Shown here: in pieces, positions 4,053 through 63,775 of the stretch | How positions within the stretch are numbered: the first letter of the stretch is position 1 | Layout of the letters: the number at the start of each line of letters is the position of its first letter | DNA from: an uncultured Anaerolineales bacterium | GTDB lineage: Bacteria > Chloroflexota > Anaerolineae > Anaerolineales > UBA11858 | Length of the DNA stretch: 64,000 nt | NCBI GenBank assembly: GCA_964603385.1 | Contig: CAZRUS010000001.1 | Span: 12,187-76,186, forward strand | Reading direction: 5' to 3' | Made by a program: the position numbers and the translations under genes | Notes under the pieces: model-generated | The model's database searches: none | What the model saw: only the letters and a program-made list of their open reading frames with translations | What the model was told of the DNA's origin: nothing

Positions 4053-4074
4053 GCATTTTCAGACGGCGGGCCTG

Positions 4075-12400: not shown

Positions 12401-12416
12401 GATGGTGATCCTTTTT

Positions 12417-17806: not shown

Positions 17807-17809
17807 GTT

Positions 17810-19860: not shown

Positions 19861-19871
19861 AGCTGTACCCT

Positions 19872-27100: not shown

Positions 27101-27862
27101 ATGAGGAATAATCGCTGGTTCCGGATCTTTTTTAGTGTCATGCTGGCTGTAATCATGGTTGGGGCAGCAGGCTTTCTGATCTGGGCTTTGAATCCCCCGG
27201 CGATAGAGCCGGAAGCCCAAACCGCCCTTGAGTCTCTGGACACCAGCCGGCTGGAACGGGGGAAGGGGCTGGTCTTTTCTCCGCCCGAAGGGATCTCCAG
27301 GGTCGGTTTGATCCTCTACCCCGGCGGGCGGGTCCAGCCCGAAGCCTACGCCCCCTTGGCAGAGGCTATCGCGGACCGTGGGTATCTGACAATCATCCCC
27401 CGGATGAGGCTAAACCTGGCCGTGCTAGAAATTCAGGCGGCTGATGAGGTTCTGGCTGCCTATCCGGAAGTGGATCGCTGGGTGATCGGCGGTCATTCCC
27501 TGGGCGGCGCCATGGCGGCTGAATATGCCGCGGATCAACCGGAGAATGTTCAGGGGTTGGTTCTCTATGCCGCCTATCCTGCCGATAGCACGGATTTATC
27601 GGAACGCGATCTGGAGGTGCTTTCCATCTATGGCACCCGGGATGGGCTGGCTTCGATGGAGGAGGTACTCGCCTCGGCGGATCGTCTGCCTGAGGACACG
27701 GTCTGGGTGGAGATTAAAGGGGGGAATCATGCCGGGTTTGGCTGGTACGGACCTCAACGGGGGGATTTCCCGGCCACCATCCCAAAAGGGGAACAGCAAC
27801 TTCAGATTTTGGAGGCAACAGCGGATTTTTTATCGCACCTGGGAGGGCAAAATGGGCACTAA
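27101..27862 (+). CDS. membrane-anchored alpha/beta hydrolase
   Basis: N-terminal TM helix and GGHSLGGAMAAEYA nucleophile elbow. Start trimmed to ATG 27101, because the longer track ORF overlaps the carboxyltransferase gene. Confidence 0.65.
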   Translation: MRNNRWFRIFFSVMLAVIMVGAAGFLIWALNPPAIEPEAQTALESLDTSRLERGKGLVFSPPEGISRVGLILYPGGRVQPEAYAPLAEAIADRGYLTIIPRMRLNLAVLEIQAADEVLAAYPEVDRWVIGGHSLGGAMAAEYAADQPENVQGLVLYAAYPADSTDLSERDLEVLSIYGTRDGLASMEEVLASADRLPEDTVWVEIKGGNHAGFGWYGPQRGDFPATIPKGEQQLQILEATADFLSHLGGQNGH

Positions 27863-28319
27863 AGTAGACATCAATACGCCAGCGCCAGATTTCAATCTGA
27901 AGGATTGGCAGGGCAGGGAAATCAAGCTGTCAGATTTCCGGGGGGAGAAGGTCGTCCTGCTGGTCTTCAACCGGGGTTTTGGTTGACCGTTCTGCCAGGC
28001 CCATATGGCGCAGTTGCGCCGTGATTATCAGAAATTCCAGCAGGCAGATGTGGAGATCCTGGTTGTTGGGCCGGAGGGGGAAAAGGCTTTCCGGCGGTAC
28101 TGGCAGAAACATGAGCTGCCCTTTATCGGACTGCCTGATCCAGAGCATAGTGTGCTGAAGCGCTACGGACAGGAGGTTAACCTTTTCAAGCTGGGCCGGA
28201 TGCCGGCCATGATGGTTGTGGACTGCCAGGGATTGGCCCGCTTTGTGCATTACGGGCATTCCATGCAGGACATCCCTGACAATGAGCAGGTTCTTTCCCT
28301 GATCAAGGAGATCCGCTGA
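27852..28319 (+). CDS. peroxiredoxin/redoxin-like (AhpC/TSA-Bcp type) protein with in-frame TGA 27984-27986: candidate selenoprotein (U-P-F-C)
   Basis: Track ORFs 27525..27986 and 28005..28319 share one frame. Read-through gives a 155-aa thioredoxin-fold protein: PAPDFNLKDWQGREIKLSDFRGEKVVLLVFNRGFG-U-PFCQAHMAQL. RBS GGGAGGG precedes ATG 27852. Confidence 0.7.
28007..28020 (+). promoter_or_regulatory. candidate bacterial SECIS hairpin for the redoxin gene
   Basis: GGCGC-AGUU-GCGCC, extendable by U-G/A-U/U-G pairs. It starts 20 nt after the TGA and has G and U in the apical loop. Confidence 0.35.
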
Positions 28320-47786: not shown

Positions 47787-47844
47787 TGGACACTCCCCAT
47801 TTCTTAGCGCAATGGATCAGAGGGCATCCCGTTTTGCAGGGATC

Positions 47845-49278
47845 TCAAGAGCTGTCCCACAAGTTCTTTTCTCGCAGCATTGGCCGGGGATCAACCACGT
47901 TTTTATGCAAGACAGCGGCCTTGGCGGGCAGTCCCAGGGCCAGAGCAATCAGCTGTGTGAAATAGAGGATGGGCAGCGAACGGCTGACATCCATCTGGAA
48001 CTGACGGGCATCCAGGTTCATATGGCAGAGTGGACAGGCAACAACCACAGCATCTGCCCCCACATCCAGCGCCTGTTGGACAAGCGTGCCGCTCAGATCA
48101 ACCACAATATCCGGCCTGGTCAATGAATGGCCGGCACCGCAGCAGGTGGTTTTATAGGACCAGTCCACCACCTGGGCACCCAGCGAATCCATCAAGACAT
48201 CCATGTCCGTGGGGTTTTCTGGATGAGCAGCGCCGGTGATCTCTGGGGGCCTGGTGAGCAGACAGCCGTAGTAGCAGACCAGCTTGAGGTCCTGAAGTGG
48301 TTTCTTGACCTGCTCCTGGAGCTTCTCCGGACCGATATGATGGTAGATGGCTTCGATCATTGTGGTTACAGCTATCCGATCTTGATAGTGATAGCCCAGC
48401 TGCTCATCCATCTGCTGCCTTTTTTCCGGGTGATGCCGCATTTCATACACCGCGGCTTGGTGGCGGTTGTAGCAGGCCGCGCAGGGCATGGTCACTTCCC
48501 GGTAGCCTTTTCTCTCCAACAGGGCCAGGTTTTCCATGGGCAGGTGCAGGGCAGCCTGGGGATCAGCCCGGTGGGCTGCTGAGCTGCCGCAGCAAACCCA
48601 GCCTTTGGGTTCCTCCAGAGGAAAGTCCAGCGCTTCACAGACAGCCAGCGTGGAGTGGTTGTACTCTGAGGCAGTGGTCTCCAGGGAGCAGCCCGGATAA
48701 TAGGCTACGGTTTCGGCGGCGTCCTCCACCGGTTGAATTTTCCGTTTACTGGGCATGCGGGCCGGATGCGGAAACAGTCCCACTTTCCCTTTCTGGAAGA
48801 ATTTCCAGTACAGCTCAAGATCCTCCAGGGCAGCCATGGGCTTGTGGAGGATCATTTCTGCCATCAGTCCCGGTTCATAGGAGCGGCCCCAGATGTTGAC
48901 CTCCCGCATGAAGGCTTTGTTGAAGTTGTCCGTTTCCGGAACACGTGGCTTGATGCCTCTTTCCAACGCTTCCCGGGTGAGGAATTCCATGATGGCGGTG
49001 ATGTCCAATCCCTGCGGACAGCGGGAGGTGCAGGTCAGGCAGCTGGCACACAGCCAGGGGGTTTTGGATTTCAGAGCAATTTCTTCCTGACCGAGCTGCA
49101 CAGCGCGCATGATCTGGTTGGGCTGCCAATCAAAAAAATCAGCTACCGGACAGCCGCTGGTGCATTTGACACACTGATAGCACAGGTAGACATTCTGTCC
49201 AAGGGCTTCCTGGATCCTTGTGGCCAGCCCAGGTTGGATGGTGATGGTTTCCGGTATCTGCCGGCTGTTCTCTGTCAT
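47845..49278 (-). CDS. fused heterodisulfide reductase HdrC-HdrB-like protein
   Basis: The N-terminus has two ferredoxin-like motifs (CYQCVKCTSGCP, CASCLTCTSRCP). The C-terminus has two CCG domains (VCCGSSAAH, TCCGAGHS). Start trimmed to ATG 49278, removing the overlap with metF. Confidence 0.8.
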   Translation of the reverse strand: MTENSRQIPETITIQPGLATRIQEALGQNVYLCYQCVKCTSGCPVADFFDWQPNQIMRAVQLGQEEIALKSKTPWLCASCLTCTSRCPQGLDITAIMEFLTREALERGIKPRVPETDNFNKAFMREVNIWGRSYEPGLMAEMILHKPMAALEDLELYWKFFQKGKVGLFPHPARMPSKRKIQPVEDAAETVAYYPGCSLETTASEYNHSTLAVCEALDFPLEEPKGWVCCGSSAAHRADPQAALHLPMENLALLERKGYREVTMPCAACYNRHQAAVYEMRHHPEKRQQMDEQLGYHYQDRIAVTTMIEAIYHHIGPEKLQEQVKKPLQDLKLVCYYGCLLTRPPEITGAAHPENPTDMDVLMDSLGAQVVDWSYKTTCCGAGHSLTRPDIVVDLSGTLVQQALDVGADAVVVACPLCHMNLDARQFQMDVSRSLPILYFTQLIALALGLPAKAAVLHKNVVDPRPMLREKNLWDSS

Positions 49279-49307
49279 TTCGAGTTCCTCTTTGCTGGAA
49301 ATGGTGG

Positions 49308-50327
49308 TTAGTGGGCTTTCTCTTTCACCCTGGGTCGGGGGAGCAGGCCGGCACCTTCCACGATGGGTTGGACTGCTTCCTCCCATTCAATGGCCATGAT
49401 ATGCACTCCGGCCACCCCTTCAATCTCCCGGATTTCCCGGATCAGGTCGATGCAGATCTGGATGCCTTCCTGCTGCCAGGCCTGGGAGCGGGCTTTCTTT
49501 TCCTCCGGGGTGAGGTCTGAGGACTTCTTCCCAGCCCATTCGCTGCCGGCTTCCGTCATCCGCTGAATGATCTCATCCGGCACCAGAATCCCTGGAACGT
49601 TATTTTTCATATATCGGGCCATCCCCGGGCTCTTAATGGGGCCGACGCCGGCCAGGAGGAAAGTCTTTTCATGGATCCCCAATTCCCGGACTTTCTTCAT
49701 GTATTTTTTAAACTCCGGGATGTCGTAAACAAGCTGGGTTTGGATGAAGTTTGCCCCGGCGTGGACTTTTTTTGCCAAACGGAGCGGACGGAAGTCGATC
49801 GGATCCGCAAAAGGCGCTGCCGCAGCCCCAACGAAGAATTTCGACGCGGGGCCGGTAAAGGCATCCCCGGATTGGAAGACAGCTTTATCGCGCATCTGGG
49901 CCACCATTTCCACCATCTGGAGGGAATCCAGATCAAATACGTTCTTCGCCGTGGGATGATTTCCAAACCGTTGATGATCCCCGGTCAGGCACAGCAGGTT
50001 GCGCATCCCCAGGGCGTAGGCGCCGAGTAAGTCACTCTGAATGGCCAAGCGATTTCGGTCCCGGCAGGTCATCTGGATCACGGGTTCCAGTCCTTCCTCC
50101 ACCAGGAGGGCTCCGGCACCGATGCTGGACATTCTGACAATGGCTGTCTGGTTGTCAGTGATATTTACTGCATCCACAAATCCAGCCAGCAGAGCAGCTT
50201 TTTCCCGGATCACTTCCAGGTCGGCGCTCTGGGGGGGACCTAACTCCCCGGTGACAGCGAATTCTCCAGCTTTGAGCACCTGCTCCAGACGGGATCCGAC
50301 CAGATATCCGTTATCGTTGTTGCTCAT
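49308..50327 (-). CDS. metF: 5,10-methylenetetrahydrofolate reductase MetF
   Basis: ...AVNITDNQTAIVRMSS...MTCRDRNR...LCLTGDH... pattern of acetogen/anaerobe-type MetF, 339 aa. Confidence 0.9.
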   Translation of the reverse strand: MSNNDNGYLVGSRLEQVLKAGEFAVTGELGPPQSADLEVIREKAALLAGFVDAVNITDNQTAIVRMSSIGAGALLVEEGLEPVIQMTCRDRNRLAIQSDLLGAYALGMRNLLCLTGDHQRFGNHPTAKNVFDLDSLQMVEMVAQMRDKAVFQSGDAFTGPASKFFVGAAAAPFADPIDFRPLRLAKKVHAGANFIQTQLVYDIPEFKKYMKKVRELGIHEKTFLLAGVGPIKSPGMARYMKNNVPGILVPDEIIQRMTEAGSEWAGKKSSDLTPEEKKARSQAWQQEGIQICIDLIREIREIEGVAGVHIMAIEWEEAVQPIVEGAGLLPRPRVKEKAH

Positions 50328-50344: not shown

Positions 50345-51028
50345 TTATTCCTGTTCAGATACCAGTCTCAAATCGTCGCGGATGATCTTCCGGGGACCCC
50401 CGTCCCGGGAGGTTTGCCAGTTCTTGGGCTGCTGGATTTCTAACAGCACCTCTGTTTTCCCCAGCGCGCTTAACCGGTCGTAAATCAGCTGCCAGGCGCA
50501 GGGGACATCCGGATCGATCTCGCAGTGTCCCTCCTCCGAGCCGCCGCAGGGGCCGTTGAGCAGGGACTTGGAGCAGCGGGCGATGGGACAGATCCCTCCT
50601 GTCAGCCCCAGGATGCAGTCTCCACAGGCCGCACAGCGCTCCTCCCAGACACCCTGCTCGGCGGGGATCCCCAGGAAGGTGGTGTTCAGTCCCGGCACCA
50701 CCCATTTCTCTGGATAACGCTCGGCAATGGCCTGCACACCAATGCCGCAGCCCAGGGAGAGGATGACCTCTGCTGAGGAAATCTCCTCCTTGATCTCATC
50801 CAGATATTCCCATTCGCATTGGCGCTGCACTGTGGCATCCGCGACTTCCCGGGGATGGCCGTTTAGTTTGGAGTTCATCCGGAGAGAAGCGGACAATATC
50901 TGGGCTTCCCGATCTCCTCCGGCAAAGCACACGGTCACACAGGTGCCGCAGCCTACCACCAGCACCTGTTCCGCATCCCCCAGTAAGGTCTGGATTTCAT
51001 TGAGCGGTTTTTGTTCGGCAATGATCAT
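50345..51028 (-). CDS. metV: MetV (methylene-THF reductase C-terminal-domain / zinc-ribbon Fe-S protein)
   Basis: GCGTCVTVC, CAACGDC, CPIARCSKSLLNGPCGG motif. It lies directly upstream of metF, as in acetogen metVF clusters. Confidence 0.8.
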   Translation of the reverse strand: MIIAEQKPLNEIQTLLGDAEQVLVVGCGTCVTVCFAGGDREAQILSASLRMNSKLNGHPREVADATVQRQCEWEYLDEIKEEISSAEVILSLGCGIGVQAIAERYPEKWVVPGLNTTFLGIPAEQGVWEERCAACGDCILGLTGGICPIARCSKSLLNGPCGGSEEGHCEIDPDVPCAWQLIYDRLSALGKTEVLLEIQQPKNWQTSRDGGPRKIIRDDLRLVSEQE

Positions 51029-51082
51029 GGCTGTCTCCTCATCGTTCCGGAATGTCCGGAGAGAATGGACCTTCCCCAGCTG

Positions 51083-51505
51083 TCATGGAGAGGTTCGCAG
51101 TGGATTGGGTCCCAGGTTCTTGATTTCTTTACTGATCTCCTCCGCTTTGGTGACAAATTCACCGGCCATAGCAGCGGAGACGTTGATCATCTGTGCGCGT
51201 GCTGGTTCAATCCCGATCTCCCCAAGAATCTCCTGCAGTCTGTTCACTCTTCTTTTTGCGTTGGTATTACCTTCCAGGTAATGGCAATCTCCGGGCAGTC
51301 AACCGGCGACCATCACCCCATCTGCTCCCTCTTCGAATGCGTGCAGGGCCAGCAGGATGTCCAGCTTGCCTGTGCAGGGGATTTCCACGATTTTGATGGT
51401 GGTGGGATACTGCAGTCTCAAGCCGCCAGCCAGGTCCGCTGCAGCATAGGCACAGTGCGTGCAGCAGTAGGACAGAATCTGTATCTTGCTGCAGTTTTCT
51501 TTCAC
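51083..51505 (-). CDS. mvhD: MvhD/FlpD-like [2Fe-2S] electron-transfer protein with in-frame TGA (51301-51299): candidate selenoprotein
   Basis: The track ORF ends ...EEGADGVMVAG-TGA. The same frame continues LPGDCHYLEGNTNAKRRV... to TGA 51085-51083, giving a 140-aa MvhD-sized protein. The TGA replaces the Cys of the GC.xGDCHY motif. The GTG start overlaps the hdrA stop (GTGA). Confidence 0.75.
51266..51282 (-). promoter_or_regulatory. candidate bacterial SECIS hairpin for mvhD
   Basis: Minus strand AUUACC-UGGAA-GGUAAU, starting 16 nt after the UGA, with G-rich apical loop. Confidence 0.35.
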
Positions 51506-54500
51506 GACGCTGTCTCCTTGCAGGGGTCTAAATAGTCAGGGACCGAGTTTTTCCACTCCTGTTGATCTGTTAATTGGGCAATTTCCTGAGCAAGCTCCGG
51601 GTGGAGCAGGGCGTGCGCTTTGGCTTGCAGCTGGAGGTCAGTGAAATGCATCAGCTCAATGGCCTTGGCCGGGCACTCCGCAGCGCAGGAGCCGCAGCCC
51701 TGGCAGACCGCGGGCTCAATATAGGCCGCGCCCTGGAGGCGGCCGATTCCAGCTGCCTCCGCCTGCATGACCGGAACTTCAAAGGGACAGATCCGCAGGC
51801 AGGTAAGACAGCCGGTGCATTTCTGCTGATCGACCTGCGCTACCCGACCGCCAGCCTTGAGGTGATCCTGACTGAGCACGATAGCTGCCCGGGAAGCCGC
51901 TGCCTGCGCCTGGATCATGCTTTCATCAAGCAGTTTTGGATAATGGGCCATCCCGGCCATGAATACGCCTTCCGTGGCAAAATCCACCGGCCGCAGCTTG
52001 ACATGGGCTTCCATGAAATACCCTTCTGCCCCCAGAGAGACTTTGAATAGGTTGGCCAGCTCCTGGCTGTCTGAGGAGGGAATCATCGGTAGTGAAAGCA
52101 CCAGCAGGTCCGCCTCAAGCTCGAGATACGAGTTCAATTTACATTCCCGGACCCGTATGGTCAGGGGCTGGGAGGGGGAGAGTCCCTCCCCCCCCTCGAG
52201 CAATTGCGGAGGGTGATCATCGTCATATCTGACGAATAACACCCCTTCCCGCCTTGCTTTGGTATAGAGCTGCTCCTTTAGACCAAAGACCCGGATATCC
52301 TTGTACAGGATGGTCACCAGAGTCTCCGGATGTTGTTGTTTTGCGGCCAGGGCATTTTTGAGAGCGGTTGTACAGCAGATCCGGCTGCAGTAGCGCTCGG
52401 CCGGGCCTATGCACTGGATCATGACCACGGATTTGAGGTCGGTGCCAGCGGGGGAAGGTTTCCGATGGGTAAGGATGGCTTCCAGGTCCTGTTGGTTGAT
52501 CACCGCGGGATGGCTGCCGTAGCCGTATTCCGCGCCTTGATACATTTCAGCCCCTGTGGCCAGGATGGTCGCCCCATGAACAATCTCCTGGTGCTTCCCG
52601 CTGGCATCTGCCGCTGTGGTGGTGAAATTCCCTTTAAACCCGGTGGTGTCAACCACCCGGGTTCCCAGATGCACGTTGATATCGGGATGATTGTCAACAT
52701 CCCTGATCAGCCGTCCCAGCACGGTTTGGGGATCCCGGTCGGTTTGAGAAAGGTAGAGCTGTCTGAGCTGTCCTCCAAGCCGATTCTCTTTTTCAATCAA
52801 ATCCACCGGGAAGCCGCTTTCAGCCAGAGTGAGGGCTGCGGTCATTCCCGCCGCGCCGCCGCCCACCACCAGGGCGGTTTTGGTGACCGGGACATCGATG
52901 GTTTTCTGCGGCTGGAGGCGGGCTGCTTTGGCAGCTGACATTCTGACCAGTTCTTTGGCTTTCTGGGTGGCTTGATCCCAATCATGGGAGTGCACCCAGG
53001 AGCATTGATTACGGATATTAGCCATTTCAAACAGGTAAGGATTGAGACTGGCGTTCCGGATGCTGTCCTGGAATAAGGGTTGATGGGTAAGCGGTGTGCA
53101 GCTGGCCACCACCACCCGGTTGAGATCTTTTTCCAACACGGTATCCGTGATGTGTTTGATACTGTCCTGCGAGCAGGTGTAAAGATTGGACTCGGCATGA
53201 ACCACATTCGGCAGGGTGCCGGCGTATTCGGTCACTTCTGGGACATCGAGGTAGCCGCCGATATTTGAGCCGCAGTGACAGATGAACACACCCACTCGAG
53301 GTTTTTGAGCACTGACATCCTTCTCCGGGGGATATTCCCGCTGCTGGGTGAGTGAAAAGCGGGCCTGACCGAGGTGGGTGCCAATGCCACCCGCTGCGCC
53401 GCTCGCTTCCATAACCGATTCCGGAATATCTTTCGGCTCCCGGAATGGTCCTGCCGCATAGATCCCTGGACGGCTGGTTTCTACGGGATTGAAGCGTACG
53501 GTGTGGCAGAATCCATATTCATCCAGCTCAATTCCCAGCTGCCTGGCCAGGGCCTGGACGCTGTCTGCGATCTCCATACCCACGGAAAGCACCACCAGAT
53601 CAAATACTTCTTCAACGGGGGCGGAGGCCCGACCGTTTTCCGGGGGACAGCGGAGAATCAGATTTCCGGTGGAAGGATCTTGTTTTATCTCGGAGATCCG
53701 ACAGTGGTGATAGTGGACCCCGTAGTGATCGCTGGCTCGCTGAAAGTATTCCAGATACCCTTTGGAAAAGGCCCGGTTGTCCATGAAAAAGATCTCGATC
53801 TCGGTTTCCGGGTAGTGGTCCCGGGTGATCAGCGCTTCCTTGGTGGCATACATGCAGCACACAGAGGAGCAGTAATCATGCTGCTGGTCCCGGGAGCCGA
53901 TGCACTGCAGAAAGGCAATCCTCCGGGGGGTTTTCTGGTCGGAAGGGCGTTCAATATGACCCATGGTAGGCCCGGAGGCGGAAAGCAGCCGTTCATACTG
54001 CAGGGAGGTGATCACATTGGGATAGCGGCCGAACCCGAATTCCTCGGAGAGCTCTGCCTGATAAGTTTGATATCCGGGAGCTAGAATGATCCCGCCAACC
54101 GGGAGGGTTCTCTCGGTGGCGACCATGTCGTGATCGATGGCATCCCGGCCGCAGGCAAAAACACAGGACATGCATTCGGAGCATATGCCGCAGGCCAGAC
54201 AGCGGGCCGCCTCGGCACGAGCGCTTTCCTCGTCATACCCGGATTCCACTTCGGCGAAATTGTTGACCCGCTGGGAGACATCCAGCTCCGGCATAGGCAC
54301 CCGCGGTTGAGGGCTGATCTCCCCGCGAGCCTGACGTTCTTGAATTTCCTGCTCGGAGAGTTCAACCACCGGCAGGGGAGGTTTCCGGGGAGGCTCGAGG
54401 TGTTTCCCCTCCAGGTAGCGCTGCATGGAACGGGCAGCGGTGTGTCCGCTGGCAACGGATTCAATCACAAAAGCTGTTCCAGAAACGCTGTCGCCGGCGG

Positions 54501-56130
54501 CAAATACCCCCTCTCTGGTAGCAGCCAGAGTGTTGGGATTGATAGCAATGGTTTGTTGATCCGTGACCCCCACCCCGGCATCATCGGGGATAAAGGCCAG
54601 GCCGGCGCGCTGACCGACAGAGAAAATCACCGTATCGCAGGGAATTTCATGCTGGGACTCAGGTATTTTTTCAACATGCAATCCCCCACTTTCATTGAAG
54701 CTGAAGCGGGCAACTTTCTGCAGCTCCATTCCCCGCACCCGGCCGTTGCCGTCTCCCAGGATGCGTTCGAAGGATCGACCAGGATGAAGGATGACTCCTT
54801 CCTGCTCGGCGGCTTCGATCTCCCAGTCATGGGCCGGCATTTCTTCCCGGTTTTCCAGGCAGGCCAGATGGACTGTCTTCCCCAGCCGAACCGCCGTCCG
54901 GGCACAGTCAATGGCCACATTGCCGCCGCCCAGCACCAGCACGCGCTCTCCCAGCGGAAGACCCTGATCACTGGCCCGGTCGCTGTATTTCCCCAGCCGG
55001 ACATCCCGCAGGAAACGCGTGTTGATGATGACACCATCCAGCTGGGAACCGGGAATGGGCAGGCGAACCCCCTCGTGGGCACCCACGGCGATGAGCACCG
55101 CCTGGAACCCCTGCTCGAAGAGTTCATCGAGATCATCCACTCGATGATTGAGCCGCAGATCCACGCCGAGATCAATAATGTCCTGCACCTCACGTTCGAT
55201 GATCTCTGTGGGCAGGCGGTATTCCGGGACCCCCAGCCGGAGCATCCCGCCGGCAACCGGCATGGCTTCGAAGACGCTGACCGGATAGCCAGCAAGAATC
55301 AAATCCTGCGCAGCGGTCAGGCCGCAGGGTCCGGCGCCGATGATGGCGGCCTTTTGTTCAGGAAAATGAATTTCTGCCGGTTCAACAGGGTCTCTGGGGG
55401 TCTCGTAGACTTTGTCGGTCACAAACCGTTTCAAGGCCCGGATGTTGATGGGTTCATCAAATTTCCCGCGGTTGCAGGCATCTTCGCAACGGTGGTTGCA
55501 GATCCGACCGCAGATTCCCGGGAAGGGATTGTCCATCTTGATCACCCGCAGGGCGTCCTCCCAGCGGCCTTCTCGGATCAGGGCGATGTAGCCCTGGGCG
55601 CGCTGTCCGGCAGGACAGGCATCCCGGCAGGGAGCAATGCCAGCTTTTTGAATCGCAAAGGCATTGGGAACCGCTTGAGGATACTGTTTGTAGACCGCAT
55701 GGCGGGTAGAAAGGCCCTCGTTAAAAATGTCCGGGATGATCACCGGGCAGACCTCAACGCAGTCGTTGCAGGCAACGCAGGCATCGACGTTCACGTAGCG
55801 GGGCTGCTGCTGGACCCGGACGGAAAAGTTGCCCACCGAACCGGAGACATCCAGGACTTCAGCATTGGTGATCAATTCGATATTGGGATGCCGACCGGTT
55901 TCTACCAATTTGGGAGAGATTGTACACATGGCGCAATCATTGGTTGGAAAGGTCTTATCCAGCTGGGCCATTTTCCCCCCGATGGCGGATTGTTTTTCAA
56001 CCAGATAGACTTTGTAGCCCTGATCTGCCAGATCGAGGGAGGCCTGCATCCCGGCAATTCCCCCTCCCACAACCATAGCGGCGCCGATCACATCGTGTGG
56101 ATTCACTTCTTGATGCCTTGAAGTCGACAT
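51502..56130 (-). CDS. hdrA: giant HdrA-like flavoprotein with inserted NfnB/GltD-like NAD(P)H module and a second HdrA-like module (HdrL-type)
   Basis: GGGIAGMQASLDLA FAD fold. GltD-like region (AIIGAGPCGLTAA, VLVLGGGNVAIDCA, AAGD). HdrA cluster signature CIGSRD...YCSSVCCMYA. Second module VVGGGAAGMTAAL...CIGPAERYCSRICC. Several CxxCxxCxxxCP motifs. Start set at ATG 56130 behind RBS GAGGGAG (track GTG 56154). Confidence 0.85.
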   Translation of the reverse strand: MSTSRHQEVNPHDVIGAAMVVGGGIAGMQASLDLADQGYKVYLVEKQSAIGGKMAQLDKTFPTNDCAMCTISPKLVETGRHPNIELITNAEVLDVSGSVGNFSVRVQQQPRYVNVDACVACNDCVEVCPVIIPDIFNEGLSTRHAVYKQYPQAVPNAFAIQKAGIAPCRDACPAGQRAQGYIALIREGRWEDALRVIKMDNPFPGICGRICNHRCEDACNRGKFDEPINIRALKRFVTDKVYETPRDPVEPAEIHFPEQKAAIIGAGPCGLTAAQDLILAGYPVSVFEAMPVAGGMLRLGVPEYRLPTEIIEREVQDIIDLGVDLRLNHRVDDLDELFEQGFQAVLIAVGAHEGVRLPIPGSQLDGVIINTRFLRDVRLGKYSDRASDQGLPLGERVLVLGGGNVAIDCARTAVRLGKTVHLACLENREEMPAHDWEIEAAEQEGVILHPGRSFERILGDGNGRVRGMELQKVARFSFNESGGLHVEKIPESQHEIPCDTVIFSVGQRAGLAFIPDDAGVGVTDQQTIAINPNTLAATREGVFAAGDSVSGTAFVIESVASGHTAARSMQRYLEGKHLEPPRKPPLPVVELSEQEIQERQARGEISPQPRVPMPELDVSQRVNNFAEVESGYDEESARAEAARCLACGICSECMSCVFACGRDAIDHDMVATERTLPVGGIILAPGYQTYQAELSEEFGFGRYPNVITSLQYERLLSASGPTMGHIERPSDQKTPRRIAFLQCIGSRDQQHDYCSSVCCMYATKEALITRDHYPETEIEIFFMDNRAFSKGYLEYFQRASDHYGVHYHHCRISEIKQDPSTGNLILRCPPENGRASAPVEEVFDLVVLSVGMEIADSVQALARQLGIELDEYGFCHTVRFNPVETSRPGIYAAGPFREPKDIPESVMEASGAAGGIGTHLGQARFSLTQQREYPPEKDVSAQKPRVGVFICHCGSNIGGYLDVPEVTEYAGTLPNVVHAESNLYTCSQDSIKHITDTVLEKDLNRVVVASCTPLTHQPLFQDSIRNASLNPYLFEMANIRNQCSWVHSHDWDQATQKAKELVRMSAAKAARLQPQKTIDVPVTKTALVVGGGAAGMTAALTLAESGFPVDLIEKENRLGGQLRQLYLSQTDRDPQTVLGRLIRDVDNHPDINVHLGTRVVDTTGFKGNFTTTAADASGKHQEIVHGATILATGAEMYQGAEYGYGSHPAVINQQDLEAILTHRKPSPAGTDLKSVVMIQCIGPAERYCSRICCTTALKNALAAKQQHPETLVTILYKDIRVFGLKEQLYTKARREGVLFVRYDDDHPPQLLEGGEGLSPSQPLTIRVRECKLNSYLELEADLLVLSLPMIPSSDSQELANLFKVSLGAEGYFMEAHVKLRPVDFATEGVFMAGMAHYPKLLDESMIQAQAAASRAAIVLSQDHLKAGGRVAQVDQQKCTGCLTCLRICPFEVPVMQAEAAGIGRLQGAAYIEPAVCQGCGSCAAECPAKAIELMHFTDLQLQAKAHALLHPELAQEIAQLTDQQEWKNSVPDYLDPCKETAS

Positions 56131-56226
56131 TGTCGTTTCTCCCTCAAACACCAATAGAAATTACTGACTGCTGCAGGAAGGCGTCAACGATGCGCTGATA
56201 AATCCACCATTCAAAGCTGAAGAAAG

Positions 56227-56259
56227 AACCGCCCATCTGCCTGAACAGCATGGGCGGTT
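56227..56259 (-). terminator. terminator/attenuator-like hairpin inside the hdrA leader
   Basis: Minus strand AACCGCCCAT-(13-nt loop)-ATGGGCGGTT followed by CTTTCTTC. It lies about 100 nt upstream of the hdrA ATG. Confidence 0.35.
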
Positions 56260-56463
56260 TGAGTGCAGTGAAAGAGAAACCGGACCAGCCAGCAGGTGGT
56301 GTGGACGAATATTGTTTATTAATGACACAGCCGCCCAGGCTCAGGGACTGAGGGGCGGCAGCGTTGAAATATTCGTGGCCCTTTGAACCTGTGGGGGGAC
56401 CGCAGGTTCAGTATTTCATTTCTTCTTGAAGCACATTGTATTTGAACTGCGATGTTGACTGTA

Positions 56464-56492
56464 TTGTAGCAAGGTGGGATACCCTTGTCAAT
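56464..56492 (-). promoter_or_regulatory. near-consensus sigma70 promoter upstream of the hdrA-mvhD-metVF-hdrCB string
   Basis: Minus-strand TTGACA (56492-56487), 17-nt spacer, TACAAT (56469-56464). Confidence 0.6.
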
Positions 56493-56690
56493 CACCTGTC
56501 TAGACAAATAGCGGTTATCTATTTGGGCTGGGCAGGCTTCTGTCCATTTTTCAGGAAAAACGGAGAAAATTCCCCTGCCCGCTGAAAAGCAAAGCTGATT
56601 TTCTGGCGCTTGAAGGGTGGGTTCTCCCCCTGAAACAGCCTTCATGAGGAGGGGCGGGAAGCTTTGTGGGACTGTTAAGCTGTGAGCGAA

Positions 56691-57755
56691 TCAGCAAATT
56701 CTGGGAAGTAATTCGCCGGCCAGGGTGTCCACGATCCTGGTGGAGCCCAGTGCTGTTTTCAACAGCAGTCTTCCCCGGGGGGAGTCCTTCACCCGGCCGA
56801 TGACAGCCGCATTTTCCCCGTAGCGTGTCTGCTGCATGACGGCCAGCACCCGGTCGGCATCTTCCTCTGCCACCACGGCGAGGAGCTTGCCCTCATTGGC
56901 GATGTAAAGCGGATCGAAGCCCAGCATCTCGCAGGCTGCCGCGACTTCCGGTTTGACGGGCAGACGCCCTTCTTCCAGCAGGATGCCAACCTGAGATTGG
57001 CGGGCGATTTCGTTCAGGGCGGTTGCTACCCCGCCCCGGGTGGGATCACGCAGGACATGGATCTGGTCGCTGGCCTCCAGCATGGCTGCCACCAGGTGGT
57101 TAAGCGGAGCGACATCACTTTCCAGGGAGGTCTGGAATCCCAGCTCTCCCCGGGCTTCCAGCACGGCGATGCCGTGATCTCCCATGGTTCCGGAGAGGAT
57201 GACCACATCCCCCGGCTGCGCCTGCGCTCCGCCGATCTCTGCACCCCGTTTCAACCAGCCCACCCCGCTGGTGGAGATATACATGCCGTCCGCCTCGCCG
57301 TGGGCGACCACTTTGGTATCCCCGCTGATCACCTCCACTCCGGCTTCTTCCGCTGCTGCCTGCATGGACTGCACCACCTGCTTAAGCTGCTTCATCTGCA
57401 AGCCTTCTTCCAGGATAAAGCTGGCGGTAAGAAAGCGGGGTTTTGCTCCCACCATGGCCACGTCATTGACTGTGCCGCATACGGCCAGCCGGCCAATATC
57501 GCCGCCCGGAAAGAACAGGGGCGAGACCACATGAGCATCCGTGCTCACGGCCAGAGAACTGCCATCCGGCAGGGGGACCACGCCGGCGTCGTTGCCAGCC
57601 AGCAGTGCAGAATTGGCCAGCGGAGGGTGAAAGGTGCCTTGGATGAGATCCCCCATCATTTTCCCTCCGCTCCCATGTCCGAGAACGATTTTTTGGTCAT
57701 GCTGCCGGGGGAGTGGGCAGGCAGCGCCTTCCAGCGAGATTTCTTTTTCACTCAT
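56691..57755 (-). CDS. hypE: hydrogenase maturation protein HypE
   Basis: AIR-synthase-like fold (GHGSGG...) and the diagnostic C-terminal ...PRIC. Confidence 0.9.
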
Positions 57756-58864
57756 CGGAGAGCTTCTTCTTCCTGACGGAATTGATTCCGGTAGCGGTAA
57801 TAGGCCGCACAGGCCCCTTCATCAGACACCATGGTCGCGCCCAGCGGATGCTCCGGGGTGCATTCCCTTCCAAAGGCCTGGCACTCGTCGGGTTTCTTCA
57901 ACCCCTGCAGCACCAGTCCTGAGATGCAAATGGGGGATTCCTCAGTTTCGATCGTTGCCACATCGAAGCGTTTTTCGGCGTCGAAGGAGGCATACGCCGG
58001 ACGTAATCGCCAGCCGCTGCCGGGGATGGTGCCGATGCCGCGCCATTTTCGATCGCAAGTTTCAAAAACACGGTTGATCATCTTCTGGGCGGATTGGTTG
58101 CCTTGCTCGGTCACGGCCCGGGAGTAAGCGTTTTTCACAGCGGATTCCCCCGCTTCCAGGGAAGTCACCGTGTCCAGGATGCCGTGAGCGACATCCAGCG
58201 GTTCGAAGCCGGTGATGGTGATGGGAATCTGAAATTTCTCAGCAAGCGGAAGATATTCCCAGTAGCCCATCACGGCGCAAACATGCCCGGCCGCCAGAAA
58301 GCCCTGCACCCGGTTGTTAGGGGAGTTAAGGATGGCTTCTATAGCGGGGGGCACCCGCACGTGGGAGACCAGGATGCTGTAATTGTCCAGGCCCAGTTTC
58401 TCGGCCTGCAGCACACTCATCACATTGGCCGGTGCGGTAGTCTCAAAACCGATGGCAAAGAAAACCACCTGCTTGTCGGGGTTTTTCTGGGCGATGGAAA
58501 CCGCATCCAGGGGAGAATAAACCACCCGGACATCCCCACCGGCAGCGCGCACAGAGAATAAATCTGCCCGGCTTCCCGGCACCCGGAGCATATCTCCATA
58601 GCTGGTAAAAATCACCCCGGGGCGGGAGGCAATTGCCAGCGCTTTATCAATCAGCTCCAGCGGGGTGACGCAGACCGGGCATCCCGGTCCATGAACCAGC
58701 TCAATCTCCTCCGGCAGCAGCTGATCCAGACCGTTTTTGATGATGGAATGGGTCTGGCCGCCGCAGATCTCCATCAACGTCCACGGTCTGGTGACCAGGG
58801 AAGAGATTTTCTGGATGGTCGACCGCACCAGATCAGCATTGCGGTATTCTTCCAGATACTTCAT
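57752..58864 (-). CDS. hypD: hydrogenase maturation protein HypD
   Basis: MKYLEEYRN..., [14 protein letters not shown] and FETT motifs, 370 aa. Confidence 0.9.
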
Positions 58865-59118
58865 CTTGTCAGCTCTTCCCCTGCCTGCTCACCGGCTTCC
58901 ATGATCTCCCGGAGCAGATCCATGGTTTCCAGCGCTTCTTCCTCACTGAGCAGACTGATGGCAAAGCCGACATGGATGATGGCGTAATCGCCCACCTCTG
59001 CTTCCGGAACATGCTCGATGCAGGCCTCTCTGGTCACACCGCTGAAATCCACCTGGGCCATGGAGAGCCCTTCTTTTTGATAAATTTCGACAATCTTACC
59101 GGGTACACCTAGACACAT
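58861..59118 (-). CDS. hypC: hydrogenase maturation protein HypC
   Basis: Start set at [12 protein letters not shown], because the essential N-terminal Cys must follow Met. RBS GGAG is upstream. The track ORF begins 7 codons earlier. Confidence 0.85.
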
Positions 59119-59131
59119 AGTAAATTTCTCC

Positions 59132-61495
59132 TTAATCACCGATCAAATACTGACCGGCAGCTACCTGTCCTAAGGCAATGCCGCCGTCATTTGCGGGGAC
59201 CTGTTGATGAATGTATATCTGAAAACCGTCCTGCTCAAGCAGCCGGCTGGTTTGTTTCAGCAGGGTAATATTCTGCCACACTCCTCCGCTGAGGGCAACC
59301 CGCTCGAGGCCGTGATCCCGGCGGATCAGCCTGGCGGCATCCCGCACCACCGCTGCCAGCCCGTTATGGAAGCGGGCAGAAATGCGGGGGAGGGGGGTCC
59401 CCTGCTGGAGCTCGTCGACAATCTTTTCCAGCGCGGGGGAGGGGTCAATCTCCCCGCTGCGGGTAATCTGGAAGGGATAGCCCCCAGATTCATCCGGGTC
59501 TGCCAGGGCTTCCAATTCCACCGCCGCCTGCCCCTCATAGCTGGTCTGCTGCCGGATACCCAAGAGAGAAGAAACGGCATCAAACAGGCGGCCCACGGAG
59601 GAGGTCAGCGGTGAATTAATTCCGGATTTCAGCTGCTTACGGAGCACATCAATTGCCCGCACGCCGAGCGGATTCTTTCGGGCCGTGAGGGCATGTTTCA
59701 CGGATGGGTAGGCGGCATCCCAGCCGAGATCCAGGCTGTGCAGATAGGATAGAGCCATCCGCCAGGGTTCCTTTACTGCCAGGTCCCCCCCCGGAAGGGG
59801 GACATAGCGAAGATGAAAGGCCCTTTGAAAGCTGCGGTAATCCGCAATCAGGAATTCTCCTCCCCAGATCTGCCCGTCTGTTCCGTAGCCGGTGCCGTCA
59901 AAGGCCACCCCGATGACCGGTTCTCCAGCAGGATGGCGGTTATCCGCCAGGCAGGAGGTAATGTGGGCGTGATGGTGCTGGACCCCGAGAGACGGAATGC
60001 CGTCTGATTCACAGCGCTGCTGGGCATACCGTGTGGCCAGGTAATCCGGGTGCAGGTCATGCACCAGCAGTTCCGGCGCTGCCCGGAAGAGCTGTTCAAA
60101 ATGGAGGATGCTTTTTTCGTAAACGGAGAGGGTCTCGTAATTTTTTAGATCGCCGATGTGCTGGCTGAGAAAGGCGTAGCTGTCCTTGCTGATGCAGAAG
60201 GTATTTTTCTGTTCTGCGCCAGTGCCCAGAATGACTGGGCTCTCCCTTTGAAGGCGGACCGGATAGGGGGTATATCCCCGGGAGCGCCGCAGTGGATAGG
60301 GGTGGGAGAGGGTTTTTTGCTCCGGTGCAGGGATTCTGGTCACGGAGTCATCGCAGGGAACATGAATGTCCCGATCATGCAGCAGAGCAGCATCAATCAC
60401 ATCGGCAAGCTTTTCTTTCAAAGACTGGTTATTGATCAAAATGGGATGATCACTGTAATTCCCGCTGGTCATCACCAGCACCTGATAAGGGGCCTCCGGA
60501 AAACGGTCTTCCCGTGAGAAGAGCAGATAATGGAGCGGTGTGTAAGGCAGCATCACGCCCAGCGTATGCTGTCCAGGAGCCAGCACATCGGGCAGGAAGG
60601 ACTCCGCCCGTTTCTCCAGCAGGAGGATCGGCCGCCGGACGGAACTGAGCAGCTTTTCTTCCTCCTCGCTCAGCCGACAGTGCCTCCGGACTGTTTCCAC
60701 ATTCGGCATCATCACCGCCAGGGGTTTATGGGGACGAATTTTCCGGCTGCGGAGGCGTTCCACCGCAGCTTGATCAGCGGCATCACAGGCCAGATGGAAT
60801 CCACCCAGCCCTTTCACAGCCACAATTTTCCCCTGAGCCAGGAGGGACTGCACCTGATTAACTGCCTGGTCCCTGCTGGCAGCGCGTTGGAACTTGTTTG
60901 GTGTGCCCGGTGTTTTCATTTCCAGCCAGATCTGAGGACCGCATTCCGGACAGGCTACCGGCTGGGCATGAAAGCGGCGGTCCAGCGGATCCTGATATTC
61001 CCCGGCGCAGGGATCGCACATCGGGAAATCAGCCATGGTGGTTTCCGGCCGGTCGTAGGGGATGTCTTTGATGATTGTGAAGCGGGGGCCGCAGTTGGTG
61101 CAGTTGATGAAGGGGTATCGATAGCGGCGGTCCTCAGGGGTGAAGAGTTCCTGCAGACATTGATCGCAGATGCTGACATCAGGTGAGATCGGCTGAAAGC
61201 CTCCGGGAACACTTTGCGAATGGCGGATTTGAAAATCCTGGTATTTGCCGGGAGAGATTTTCTCCCGGCGTAAGGAGTCGATCTGAGCCAGGGGAGGCGC
61301 CTGCTTTTTCAGGTCGGATAAAAAAATCTCCAATGCATCCTGGCTTCCTTCCACTTCAATTTCCACTCCAGATGAAGTGTTTTTTACCCAGCCGGCAAGG
61401 CTGCAGCGGGAGGCAAGATTGTAAACAAAGGGACGGAATCCCACCCCTTGAACAATGCCTTGAATGCTGATTCGCATTGCAGCCTGTTCGGTCAT
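59132..61495 (-). CDS. hypF: carbamoyltransferase HypF
   Basis: Acylphosphatase domain (GIVQGVGFRPFVY), two zinc-finger CxxC pairs (CDQC...CTNCGPRF; CDPC...CPECGP), and YrdC-like and Kae1-like domains. Start proposed at ATG 61495, overlapping the hypB stop. Confidence 0.9.
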   Translation of the reverse strand: MTEQAAMRISIQGIVQGVGFRPFVYNLASRCSLAGWVKNTSSGVEIEVEGSQDALEIFLSDLKKQAPPLAQIDSLRREKISPGKYQDFQIRHSQSVPGGFQPISPDVSICDQCLQELFTPEDRRYRYPFINCTNCGPRFTIIKDIPYDRPETTMADFPMCDPCAGEYQDPLDRRFHAQPVACPECGPQIWLEMKTPGTPNKFQRAASRDQAVNQVQSLLAQGKIVAVKGLGGFHLACDAADQAAVERLRSRKIRPHKPLAVMMPNVETVRRHCRLSEEEEKLLSSVRRPILLLEKRAESFLPDVLAPGQHTLGVMLPYTPLHYLLFSREDRFPEAPYQVLVMTSGNYSDHPILINNQSLKEKLADVIDAALLHDRDIHVPCDDSVTRIPAPEQKTLSHPYPLRRSRGYTPYPVRLQRESPVILGTGAEQKNTFCISKDSYAFLSQHIGDLKNYETLSVYEKSILHFEQLFRAAPELLVHDLHPDYLATRYAQQRCESDGIPSLGVQHHHAHITSCLADNRHPAGEPVIGVAFDGTGYGTDGQIWGGEFLIADYRSFQRAFHLRYVPLPGGDLAVKEPWRMALSYLHSLDLGWDAAYPSVKHALTARKNPLGVRAIDVLRKQLKSGINSPLTSSVGRLFDAVSSLLGIRQQTSYEGQAAVELEALADPDESGGYPFQITRSGEIDPSPALEKIVDELQQGTPLPRISARFHNGLAAVVRDAARLIRRDHGLERVALSGGVWQNITLLKQTSRLLEQDGFQIYIHQQVPANDGGIALGQVAAGQYLIGD

Positions 61496-62160
61496 TAACG
61501 CGGCTCCTCCTGCTCCAGTCTTGCAGCCAGCCAATCCAGCCAGGCATCCAGCCCTTCTCCAGTCCGGCAGGAAAGCGGGAAACTGACCAGGCTCGGATTG
61601 AGGATCCGGACCCCTTTCTGAAAATAATCCATATCAAAGTCTACATGGGGAAGCAAATCGATTTTATTGATGATCAGGGCATCCACATCCTGATACATGG
61701 CAGGGTATTTATAGGGTTTGTCATCCCCTTCCGGGATTGAGGCGATGAGCACATTTTGATGGGTCCCCAGCTGAAAGGATGCCGGGCAGATCAGGTTGCC
61801 GACATTTTCAACCAGCAGCAGGTCGAATTTCTCCAGCTGCAGGGCTCGAAGGGCGTTGCGGAGCATATTGGCATCAATATGACACTGCCCGCCGGTGTTG
61901 ATCTGGACGGCCGTGGCTCCCGCTTTCGCTGCCCGGTCCGCATCAATGCTGGTGGCGACGTCGCCGTCGATGACGGCGATCTGAAAGCGATTGTGCAGGG
62001 ATTGCAGCGTGCGTTCGATCAGGGATGTTTTTCCTGCGCCTGGGGAAGCCATCAGGTTCAGACCCAGCACACCGGACTGGTCCAGCTGCTGGCGGTTCTC
62101 CAGCGCCAGCTGGTCATTGGCATCATGGATTTTTTCCACAACAGAGACTTTTTTTGTCAT
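61495..62160 (-). CDS. hypB: hydrogenase nickel-incorporation GTPase HypB
   Basis: GSPGAGKT-type P-loop (MASPGAGKTSLIE), ENVGNLICP, and NKIDLL. Start trimmed to ATG 62160, 1 nt after the hypA stop. Confidence 0.9.
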   Translation of the reverse strand: MTKKVSVVEKIHDANDQLALENRQQLDQSGVLGLNLMASPGAGKTSLIERTLQSLHNRFQIAVIDGDVATSIDADRAAKAGATAVQINTGGQCHIDANMLRNALRALQLEKFDLLLVENVGNLICPASFQLGTHQNVLIASIPEGDDKPYKYPAMYQDVDALIINKIDLLPHVDFDMDYFQKGVRILNPSLVSFPLSCRTGEGLDAWLDWLAARLEQEEPR

Positions 62161-62161
62161 T

Positions 62162-62515
62162 TCATTCCTCAGAGGTGATGTTAATGCTGTCGAGGTGGAA
62201 TTCCCTGCCCTGCAGGATGTCCACATTTCCGCTGCTGCAGTTAGGGCAGGGGGTGAGCTCGCCCTCCTCCAGCCGAAAGACATGCTGACAGTCCCGGCAG
62301 CGAAATTCTGCCGGGAGACGCTTAAAGTGCAGCTTTGACCCTTCACAAAGGGTGCCCTCTGTGATCAGGTCCCAGTAGAACTGAACGGATTCATCGACAA
62401 CGCTTGACAGCTCACCAATTACCAGGTAGAGATCGGTGATCTTCCGGGCATGGTTCTTTTCCGCGTGCTTGATGGCCAGATCAGCTATTTGCTGCGTAAT
62501 GGTAAGTTCATGCAT
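62162..62515 (-). CDS. hypA: hydrogenase nickel-insertion protein HypA
   Basis: MHE N-terminus and a CxxC...CxxC zinc site (CRDC...CPNC), 117 aa. Confidence 0.85.
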   Translation of the reverse strand: MHELTITQQIADLAIKHAEKNHARKITDLYLVIGELSSVVDESVQFYWDLITEGTLCEGSKLHFKRLPAEFRCRDCQHVFRLEEGELTPCPNCSSGNVDILQGREFHLDSINITSEE

Positions 62516-62534
62516 GGTCAGTTGCTGTTAATGG

Positions 62535-63584
62535 TCAGGGTCTCTGAAAGACCTGAGCCTGTTTGGCAGCGCGCGTTGCCAGGAGGAATAAAAGGGTCAT
62601 AATCACTGCAGAGCCCAGGCACCACAGGCAGCTGGCCCCGATAACAAAGGGTTCCAGAAAAGTCAGGTAGATGGAAAACAGCGTGCCGACCAGGGTGACC
62701 CCCCAGAGTGCAAAGCAGCTGGCTTTTTGCCAGCGCTGGGGACCGTAGGATTGCAGGGCCCAGGCGATTAGAACAGCCAGGTATCCCAGCACCCCAAGGA
62801 ATCCCATGGGGACGACCCCGAAGAGATACGCGTAAGGGCTCTGCTGCACAGTGTTGCATTTTCCTACCGGACCGCAGACAGCCTCTGTACTGGAAAATTC
62901 CACATAAGCCAGATAAGCTGCTACGCCGGTTCCAATCACAGCCAGCACTGGAATCAGCCAGCCGGATTGCCCGCTGGAACCAGGGTTGGCAGGTTTGCGG
63001 AGGTTAATCCCAACCCCGATGACAGCTGCCAGCATACCGATTAACACCAGCACGGAAAGGGAATTGGCTGCCAGGTCGGCTGTAAAACGCTCCCGAAGGG
63101 TAGTCCTGTGATTCAGCCCTCCACCAGGATCCGCTGCTGACTGCTCAGCGGCTGCTCTGGCTTCAGTCAGCCCGGGGAGATCCGGCCAATCGATCCCTCC
63201 CTGTTGAAGGCCTTCCTGAATGATCCCGGGAAATTTTTCCGGGATTTCCAATGAGCCCAACAGCAGCTGATCATCAACGACCATGGCGGGAACCCCCCGG
63301 TTCTCTGCCGGGACCTGAAATTGGTTCATGGCCGTATCAAAGAGCCGCCCCCCCTGCTCGGTGTAAGTGTCTACTCCAAAAATTTGCAGCTGGGTGCCGT
63401 ATTCCTCCACCAGGGGAGGGAGAACGTCGTTGATCACATCCAGGCAATGGGGACAGGAAGGGGAGTAAAACAACACCGCTCTGATGACCGGCTTATCTTC
63501 CTGGGCCTGAACCTGATTGCTCCCGGAGAAGAAACTGCTCAGGATTACCAGGGCGATCAGGAGGGTGTAAAAGGACTTTTTCAT
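62535..63584 (-). CDS. thioredoxin-like (DsbA-type CPHC) domain fused to vitamin K epoxide reductase (VKOR) membrane domain
   Basis: Signal/anchor, FYSPSCPHC, then TM domain with the loop CGPVGKC and CLWC motifs typical of bacterial VKOR. Start trimmed to ATG 63584 behind RBS GGAGG. Confidence 0.8.
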   Translation of the reverse strand: MKKSFYTLLIALVILSSFFSGSNQVQAQEDKPVIRAVLFYSPSCPHCLDVINDVLPPLVEEYGTQLQIFGVDTYTEQGGRLFDTAMNQFQVPAENRGVPAMVVDDQLLLGSLEIPEKFPGIIQEGLQQGGIDWPDLPGLTEARAAAEQSAADPGGGLNHRTTLRERFTADLAANSLSVLVLIGMLAAVIGVGINLRKPANPGSSGQSGWLIPVLAVIGTGVAAYLAYVEFSSTEAVCGPVGKCNTVQQSPYAYLFGVVPMGFLGVLGYLAVLIAWALQSYGPQRWQKASCFALWGVTLVGTLFSIYLTFLEPFVIGASCLWCLGSAVIMTLLFLLATRAAKQAQVFQRP

Positions 63585-63775
63585 GCCGCCTCCGCGATAG
63601 AACATGGATGCCAAACCCGTCGGGGGTCGGCTATCCCTGAATGTTTTTCCACCGCTCCATTATAGTACATTTAGTTTGTGAAGATAAGCACAAATTAATC
63701 TCCTGCTAAGGCCGGAAAGAGGGTGGGTTGAGACTGTTTGTCGATCCGGATGGTCATATCTGCCGGATTTAGCAG

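Follow-up and report, generated by a model that had tools for sequence, protein, structure and literature searches.

An mvhD gene with a probable selenocysteine codon in a MetVF-type operon of an uncultured Anaerolineales bacterium

Organization of the mvhD locus

The stretch of DNA analyzed here (64 kb; referred to below as the window) carries on its minus strand a gene cluster in the order hypF, hypD, hypE, hdrL-like, mvhD, metV, metF, and a gene for a fused HdrC/HdrB-like protein. The features around mvhD are as follows.

51502..56130, minus strand: HdrA-like fusion protein ("HdrL" type, 1542 aa); Pfam
51514..51519, minus strand: Shine-Dalgarno sequence AAGGAG, 8 nt 5' of the mvhD GTG; read from the sequence
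51083..51505, minus strand: mvhD (FlpD/MvhD family), a single, putatively recoded ORF of 140 aa; sequence and frame, PF02662, alignments
51299..51301, minus strand: in-frame UGA, very probably read as selenocysteine (Sec; residue 69); Cys/Sec column, conservation
51266..51282, minus strand: SECIS-type hairpin inside the coding sequence, codons H-Y-L-E-G-N; RNAalifold, wobble invariance, covariation
50345..51028, minus strand: metV (DUF5981, methylene-THF reductase C-terminal-like); Pfam PF12225, E 4.7e-38
49308..50327, minus strand: metF (methylenetetrahydrofolate reductase); Pfam PF02219, E 1.2e-37
47845..49386, minus strand: fused HdrC/HdrB-like protein, Fer4 plus two CCG domains; Pfam CCG, Fer4_17, Fer4_8

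According to Pfam, the HdrL-like protein combines a GltD/NfnB-like part (Fer4_20 plus Pyr_redox_2) with an HdrA-type FAD module and ferredoxin domains. Its sequence starts with MSTSRHQ, and the gene had the same length in an independent assembly (Logan SRR7048227, locus L001). A second in-frame stop ahead of this gene (56161-56163) was rejected as a candidate, as the normal ATG start follows it. At the other end of the operon, the HdrC/HdrB-like ORF overlaps metF, and the gene therefore probably begins further downstream than 49386; the homologs in orthologous loci are 471 to 476 aa long. The gene order was the same in orthologous loci that contain a Cys-type mvhD. Given the co-location of hdrA-like, mvhD, metV, metF, and hdrB/C genes, mvhD can be assigned from the sequence to a MetVF-type methylene-tetrahydrofolate reductase operon.

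The hdrL-mvhD-metVF operon is immediately preceded by a hydrogenase maturation cluster (56691-63614, minus strand). Within it, hypE, hypD, and hypF were confirmed, while hypC, hypB, and hypA were recognized from their counterparts in L001; a VKOR-family gene was also present. No hydrogenase structural genes were found between this cluster and the operon, and the 560-nt gap (56131-56690) contained a sole ORF (56319-56645), which matched no family.

The mvhD frame continues past an in-frame UGA

The gene mvhD starts with a GTG codon (51505-51503, minus strand) that shares the letters GTGA with the TGA stop of the upstream gene, an overlap that suggests translational coupling. After 68 sense codons, which finish in ...EEGADGVMVAG, the frame meets a TGA at 51301-51299 (the putative Sec codon), and it then runs on for 71 codons (LPGDCHYLEGNTNAKRRVNRLQ...GPNPLRTSP) up to a second, terminal TGA at 51085-51083. 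The first-pass annotation of this DNA had reported a 68-aa ORF ending at the first TGA with the frame open for 71 more codons, and both its coordinates and its peptide were right. It had also held that reading through the codon restores a full-length MvhD/FlpD protein of about 140 aa. In agreement with this, the 140-aa product, with Cys put in for the TGA, matched Pfam PF02662 over the whole model (1-123 of 123; E 3.9e-45), scoring 153.3 bits against a curated cutoff of 22.3.

The conserved Cys set of the family was recovered by alignment (C15, C18, C44, C69, and C74 in the numbering of the window protein), and the adjacency to an HdrA-type gene that characterizes the family was also found, the hdrL-like gene overlapping the start of mvhD. 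The best NCBIfam match, VhuD (NF045873), reached 147.8 bits, below the cutoff of 215; the window protein is thus a homolog of VhuD but not a VhuD ortholog.

A sequencing error at 51299-51301 had been named at the outset as an observation that would undo the proposal. The independent assembly L001, in which gene callers annotate mvhD as a 68-aa ORF only, showed the identical TGA and flanks, and therefore no error peculiar to the window is involved.

The UGA codon is aligned with Cys and with Sec

The first-pass annotation placed the TGA at a Cys of the GC.xGDCHY motif and called for an alignment to Cys- and Sec-containing MvhD orthologs. In the alignments made here, the TGA column was invariably Cys in the Cys-type homologs (17 of 17), while Sec occupied it in the VhuD protein of Methanococcus maripaludis (PDB 9sfi_K). 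The deposited sequence of the latter has X (Sec) at two sites, the second of which (VAGXKPNEC) falls exactly on the TGA column; the other (CYQX) is equivalent to Cys18 of the window protein. The gene therefore has, as expected of a selenoprotein gene, a UGA within its frame that corresponds to Cys or Sec in homologs. The best database homologs of the window protein were 57 to 72% identical to it, those with named sources coming from Chloroflexi or Anaerolineae, and the MvhD/VhuD chains in the PDB were matched with E values from 1.5e-38 to 3.9e-30.

Only five Cys positions are common to the window protein and VhuD. If four of these five ligate the [2Fe-2S] cluster, at least one Sec position of VhuD would have to be a ligand; a description of the residues that ligate the MvhD cluster was sought in the literature and not found.

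TGA-type mvhD genes are widespread in Chloroflexota

To follow the spread of this gene type, one genome per species (GTDB; 596 Gb) was scanned with the pattern GCNGGNTGANTNNNNGGNRAYTGYCAYTWY, that is, A-G-TGA-x-x-G-[DN]-C-H-[YF], for which chance alone would give about 4 matches in a search space of that size. At least 119 loci matched, and at least 117 of them were mvhD genes with TGA at the Sec codon; two matches, in Polaromonas and Pseudomonas putida, were due to chance and were not MvhD. The hosts were almost all metagenome-assembled genomes of Chloroflexota, Anaerolineae, Anaerolineales, or Promineifilaceae. Among the matches listed, an hdrL-like gene adjoined mvhD in 110 of the 117 Sec-type loci, and metV and/or metF lay inside the 8-kb locus in 84 of the 117. 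The encoded proteins showed a median pairwise identity of 61%, the window protein being at most 69% identical to any other Sec-type protein of the set.

In all of the at least 117 genes the frame stayed open past the TGA, with about 70 conserved codons following. Amino acids after the UGA were conserved while synonymous sites varied. Thus, Gly+3 was encoded by all four codons (GGC, GGT, GGA, and GGG), Cys+5 by TGC in 67 genes and TGT in 52, Ala+14 by four codons, and Arg+17 by six. Conservation of the amino acids together with free synonymous variation indicates that the region past the UGA is translated in the mvhD frame, so that the in-frame coding conservation 3' of the UGA expected of a selenoprotein gene was found in at least 117 genomes.

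A conserved hairpin follows the UGA

Positions 51282-51276 pair with 51272-51266 in a stem of 7 bp closed by a GGA loop (51275-51273). Counting the U of the UGA as 0, the RNAalifold consensus of 119 sequences placed this stem at +19..+25 with +29..+35, again with the GGA triloop. The hairpin begins 16 nt past the UGA and its loop 22 to 23 nt past it. The element thus coincides with the hairpin AUUACC-UGGAA-GGUAAU of the first-pass annotation, for which a start at 16 nt and a loop at 22 nt had been given, and it provides the stem-loop directly 3' of the UGA, with a G in the apical loop, that a bacterial selenoprotein gene should have.

The 18 nt from +18 to +35 (CAU UAC CUG GAA GGU AAU; window 51283-51266) showed almost no synonymous change among the 119 distinct Sec-type sequences, while nearby wobble sites varied freely. 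As a distant Cys-type control, a metagenome scan with TGY in place of TGA was used, which gave 109 usable MvhD genes, mostly from other lineages. The codons compared as follows.

His: CAU in 119 of 119 Sec-type genes; CAU in 61 and CAC in 48 distant Cys-type genes
Tyr: UAC in 118 of 119 Sec-type genes
Leu position: C-N-G in 119 of 119 Sec-type genes (CUG in 112)
Glu position: GAA in 89 of 119 Sec-type genes
Gly (+10): GGU in 118 of 119 Sec-type and 16 of 109 distant Cys-type genes
Asn: AAU in 119 of 119 Sec-type and 52 of 109 distant Cys-type genes
Full 6-bp core stem: 119 of 119 Sec-type and 3 of 109 distant Cys-type genes

Since the search pattern left Y at the wobble sites of His and Tyr and omitted +24 to +35 entirely, this invariance is not an ascertainment artefact. 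The minimum free energy structure of the individual Sec-type sequences included the hairpin in 113 cases out of 119, and all six pairs of the core stem could form in every one of the 119 genes. Pair 22-32 was A-U in 118 sequences and U-A in the remaining one (L024, with UUC and GGA). The closing pair 25-29 was U-A in 92, U.G in 11, G-C in 3 (Arg CGG with Asp GAC), A-U in 3 (Gln CAG with Asp GAU), and mismatched in 10. Both pairs covary in the Sec-type set.

The folding energy of the hairpin is weak (-5.3 kcal/mol), and that of the 75 nt past the UGA was ordinary compared with shuffled sequences (z = +0.39); because of this, the significance of the hairpin is drawn only from the comparison across genomes. 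Rfam detected no SECIS family anywhere in the window at the gathering threshold, and when 51000-51600 was searched at E <= 10 it returned noise only, the hairpin matching no family. No conserved lower stem extending the hairpin was found by RNAalifold in the 119 sequences. The SECIS covariance search suggested by the first-pass annotation was therefore fruitless as regards known families. Its proposal of the hairpin as a SECIS gained from the retention of the element in all 119 Sec-type genes and from the two covarying pairs. Bacterial SECIS elements are described as hairpins at a comparable distance from the UGA with a small, G-rich loop, and in position and loop the mvhD hairpin appears to fit them. 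Like the SECIS of the Escherichia coli fdhF type, it is a coding-region hairpin just 3' of the UGA with a G in a small apical loop. It differs from bacterial SECIS elements in its short stem (7 bp), its GGA triloop, and its lack of an Rfam match, and it is best regarded as a candidate SelB site.

Close Cys-type orthologs retain the hairpin

Because the distant control was phylogenetically broad, 10 true Cys-type orthologs from the same operon type were added. The full hairpin was, unexpectedly, kept in nine of them (L243 to L249, L251, and L252). The seven with the peptide HYLEGN all had exactly CAT TAC YTG GAR GGT AAT, while the two with Phe carried a compensatory partner, TTC with GGG (U.G) or TTT with GGA (U-A). 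In the tenth ortholog (L242; HYLQGN, encoded by CAC...GGC AAC) the hairpin was lost. With the codon frequencies of the distant set, the full stem would be expected in about 2 to 5% of saturated sequences. Conservation of the hairpin is therefore not strictly tied to the UGA.

At the protein level, Phe replaced Tyr, thereby breaking pair 22-32, in about one-third of the Cys-type proteins among the best 120 database hits, compared with 1 of 119 Sec-type genes. HYL[ED]GN was kept in almost all Cys-type proteins that shared 76% identity or more with a Sec-type relative, and those at 74% or less mostly had HF... or HYQ... variants. The Sec and Cys states were interspersed in a neighbor-joining tree of 230 sequences, with at least 30 changes; for so short a protein the tree may be poorly resolved, in which case this figure is an overestimate. 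The Cys-type protein P0030 and the Sec-type protein L096 shared 96% identity.

The simplest reading of these data would be that many recent switches, from Sec to Cys or from Cys to Sec, have left remnant SECIS elements behind, as described for hairpins past Cys codons in FdhA and HesB-like genes (PMC1794560). It is also conceivable, although rather unlikely, that within this Chloroflexota clade of mvhD the hairpin is maintained whether the allele encodes Sec or Cys, either as a standby SECIS or for a second, Sec-independent role. If a standby SECIS were involved, lineages could toggle between TGA and TGY by one base as the selenium supply changes; a second role might be, for example, to make the ribosome pause while it translates the cluster-binding motif. 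Of the features of this system, the retention of the hairpin in genes with a Cys codon is the one that might open up something new.

Selenocysteine decoding and a second candidate selenoprotein

Neither the 64-kb window nor some 1.7 Mb of related loci fetched for comparison contained selA, selB, selD, or a tRNA-Sec gene. ARAGORN, run on the window and on 250 fetched loci, detected no tRNA-Sec, and NCBIfam and Pfam identified no Sec machinery among 27 ORFs of the window. An AIRS-family gene (56691-57755) was rejected as selD since it is hypE, and a class V aminotransferase encoded in the window was rejected as a selenocysteine lyase, being of another type. A second gene interrupted by TGA, which the first-pass annotation had noted as having a hairpin of similar spacing, proved to be real:

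27853-28319, plus strand: AhpC/TSA-Redoxin candidate selenoprotein, 155 aa, with GFG-U-PFC (UxxC); PF00578

Its TGA (27984-27986) stands at the position of the redox Cys, and the PF00578 match (E 2.1e-24) spans it, the gene being at present split into two ORFs (27525-27986 and 28005-28319). The hairpin has 8 bp and an AGUU loop, with the stem starting 18 nt and the loop 25 nt past the UGA. Two further candidates for read-through of TGA on the minus strand (47817-47819 and 27930-27932) were rejected because their translations were not protein-like.

The Sec-decoding trait and tRNA-Sec have been reported in Chloroflexi (PMC1794560, PMC5389517), and marine Anaerolineae have been described with Sec-containing formate dehydrogenases and a MetVF-type operon in which hdrB and hdrC are fused (PMC5736913). 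From this literature and the redoxin TGA we infer that the organism decodes Sec.

Interpretation of the UGA codon

Based on the UGA itself, the conservation of the frame across it, the homology to a verified Sec position, and the strong selection acting on the hairpin, codon 69 of mvhD is very probably decoded as Sec, with the hairpin as a bacterial SECIS. According to this model, mvhD would be one gene encoding a [2Fe-2S] electron-transfer subunit of about 140 aa that belongs to an HdrA-type flavin-based electron-bifurcating complex, predicted to be of the HdrL-MvhD-MetV-MetF-HdrBC (methylene-tetrahydrofolate reductase) type. With the ribosome stalled on the UGA, the hairpin would bring in SelB.GTP.Sec-tRNA(Sec), Sec would be inserted at codon 69 in place of termination, and it would stand in for one of the five conserved Cys residues of the MvhD cluster-binding core.

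A pseudogene, or an assembly or sequencing error, would leave a nonsense-broken mvhD with a 68-aa fragment at most, in line with the 68-aa ORF annotated in L001 and with the failure to find Sec machinery in the window. However, the TGA is shared by the independent assembly and at least 117 species-level genomes with the downstream frame intact, the relatives showing neither frameshifts nor a neutral pattern of substitution in that half, and decay would not leave some 70 downstream codons under purifying selection. This explanation is in effect refuted and is the least probable of those considered. Hardly more credible is a split gene, in which an internal start would serve the second half and the two separate products would combine to form MvhD. 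An in-frame GTG 18 codons past the TGA (ORF 51083-51247), the sole one there in the window, could serve as such a start, but the Val+18 codon was GTG in only 29 of 119 relatives, being GTA, GTC, GTT, or ATC elsewhere, and a restart at this point would lose the conserved Cys74-His-Tyr motif. Furthermore, no conserved start codon was found in the 119 relatives between the UGA and the stretch LPGDCHYLEGN...RRV, whose amino acids are strongly conserved although its synonymous sites vary. Translation in frame with no conserved restart thus argues for excluding both explanations.

Reading of the UGA without Sec, either by a near-cognate tRNA (Trp or Cys) or through lineage-wide reassignment, with the hairpin aiding read-through or serving another purpose, might be suggested by the persistence of the hairpin in Cys-type orthologs, which need no SECIS, and by the Trp or Gly that some database entries show at this codon. 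Among the best 120 database proteins, the TGA column was occupied by W in 12, G in 1, and V in 1, and all 14 had the HYL[ED]GN peptide (the W and G entries are P0029, P0043, P0053, P0064, P0070, P0079, P0085, P0086, P0088, P0102, P0105, P0114, and P0117). However, the DNA behind one W entry (P0043; locus L250) has TGA as the codon, which implies that genetic code 4 or 25 was applied to Chloroflexota contigs in these gene calls; the W and G residues at the Sec column are gene-caller artefacts of TGA codons. TGA was, moreover, the commonest true stop in the window, ending 24 of 40 long ORFs, mvhD included, and thus UGA has not been reassigned and any recoding is local. In addition, the aligned residue is Cys, neither Trp nor Gly, and Sec occupies this position in the verified archaeal homolog. 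We therefore give this alternative only a slight chance, if a little more than the other two.

Relation to known systems

The preferred reading, Sec at codon 69, places the gene in a known family. FrhD/MvhD/VhuD (PF02662) is listed among the experimentally verified selenoprotein families (PMC13188914) and was the third-largest bacterial one in 2006, a family in which Sec has changed to Cys and Cys to Sec (PMC1794560). The statement of the first-pass annotation that Sec-type MvhD/VhuD proteins occur in methanogens and sulfate reducers is well documented (PMC13188914, PMC1794560, PMC2702500), and a 2026 review confines them to these two groups (PMC13188914). The Chloroflexota and MetVF context is absent from the reviews PMC13188914 and PMC9312934, and the reports on MetVF-type systems PMC5736913 and PMC6085437 make no mention of Sec in MvhD.

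The window protein resembles M. maripaludis VhuD in its PF02662 domain (residues 10-137 aligned at E 6.8e-34), in having its putative Sec in the same column, and in its likeness to a [2Fe-2S] connector that docks onto HdrA (PMC13518236, PMC13188914). VhuD differs in having a second Sec (CYQU) where the window protein has Cys18, and in its partners, which are the Vhu hydrogenase or Fdh, instead of MetVF. In archaeal selenoprotein genes the SECIS lies in the 3' untranslated region. There are also bacterial parallels: Desulfobacterium autotrophicum has four Sec-type mvhD genes adjoining hdrA or hdrL (PMC2702500), and these genes (mvhD1/2/3/5) and the FrhD of Syntrophobacter fumaroxidans are, like the window mvhD, found beside HdrA/HdrL-type genes (PMC2702500, PMC1794560). 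The likeness to these deltaproteobacterial proteins is drawn from their published descriptions, and the window gene differs in its phylum and in having MetVF as the partner module. The gene set and order, including the hdrB-hdrC fusion, are those of the MetVF-type systems reported from Chloroflexi (PMC5736913, PMC6085437); unlike in these, HdrA in the window is a fusion of about 1540 aa with a GltD/NfnB-like NAD(P)H module.

By comparison of sequences, a putatively recoded mvhD with the identical hairpin is present and unannotated in more than 100 Chloroflexota species, for which public data give the gene as a 68-aa fragment or mistranslate it with Trp or Gly. A key subunit of the methylene-THF reductase module of the Wood-Ljungdahl pathway would consequently be misannotated in those species. 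The range of Sec-containing MvhD would be extended to Anaerolineae, and selenium would be tied to a MetVF-type electron-bifurcating complex. The invariant 18-nt element, for its part, may be used as a simple and specific marker for Sec-type mvhD and represents a compact natural candidate SECIS.

Other features of the window

A run of large ORFs on the minus strand (10787-22676) encodes products of 537, 1215, 581, 230, 452, and 934 aa. The 452-aa product matched the ACP-repeat region of PfaA, from a polyketide-type polyunsaturated fatty acid synthase, with E 2e-70, although below the cutoff, and the run possibly represents a cluster of the PUFA or polyketide synthase type. A tRNA-Pro gene (GGG; 3941-4018, plus strand) lies within a mechanically called ORF (3877-4869), and therefore this ORF either starts further downstream or is spurious.
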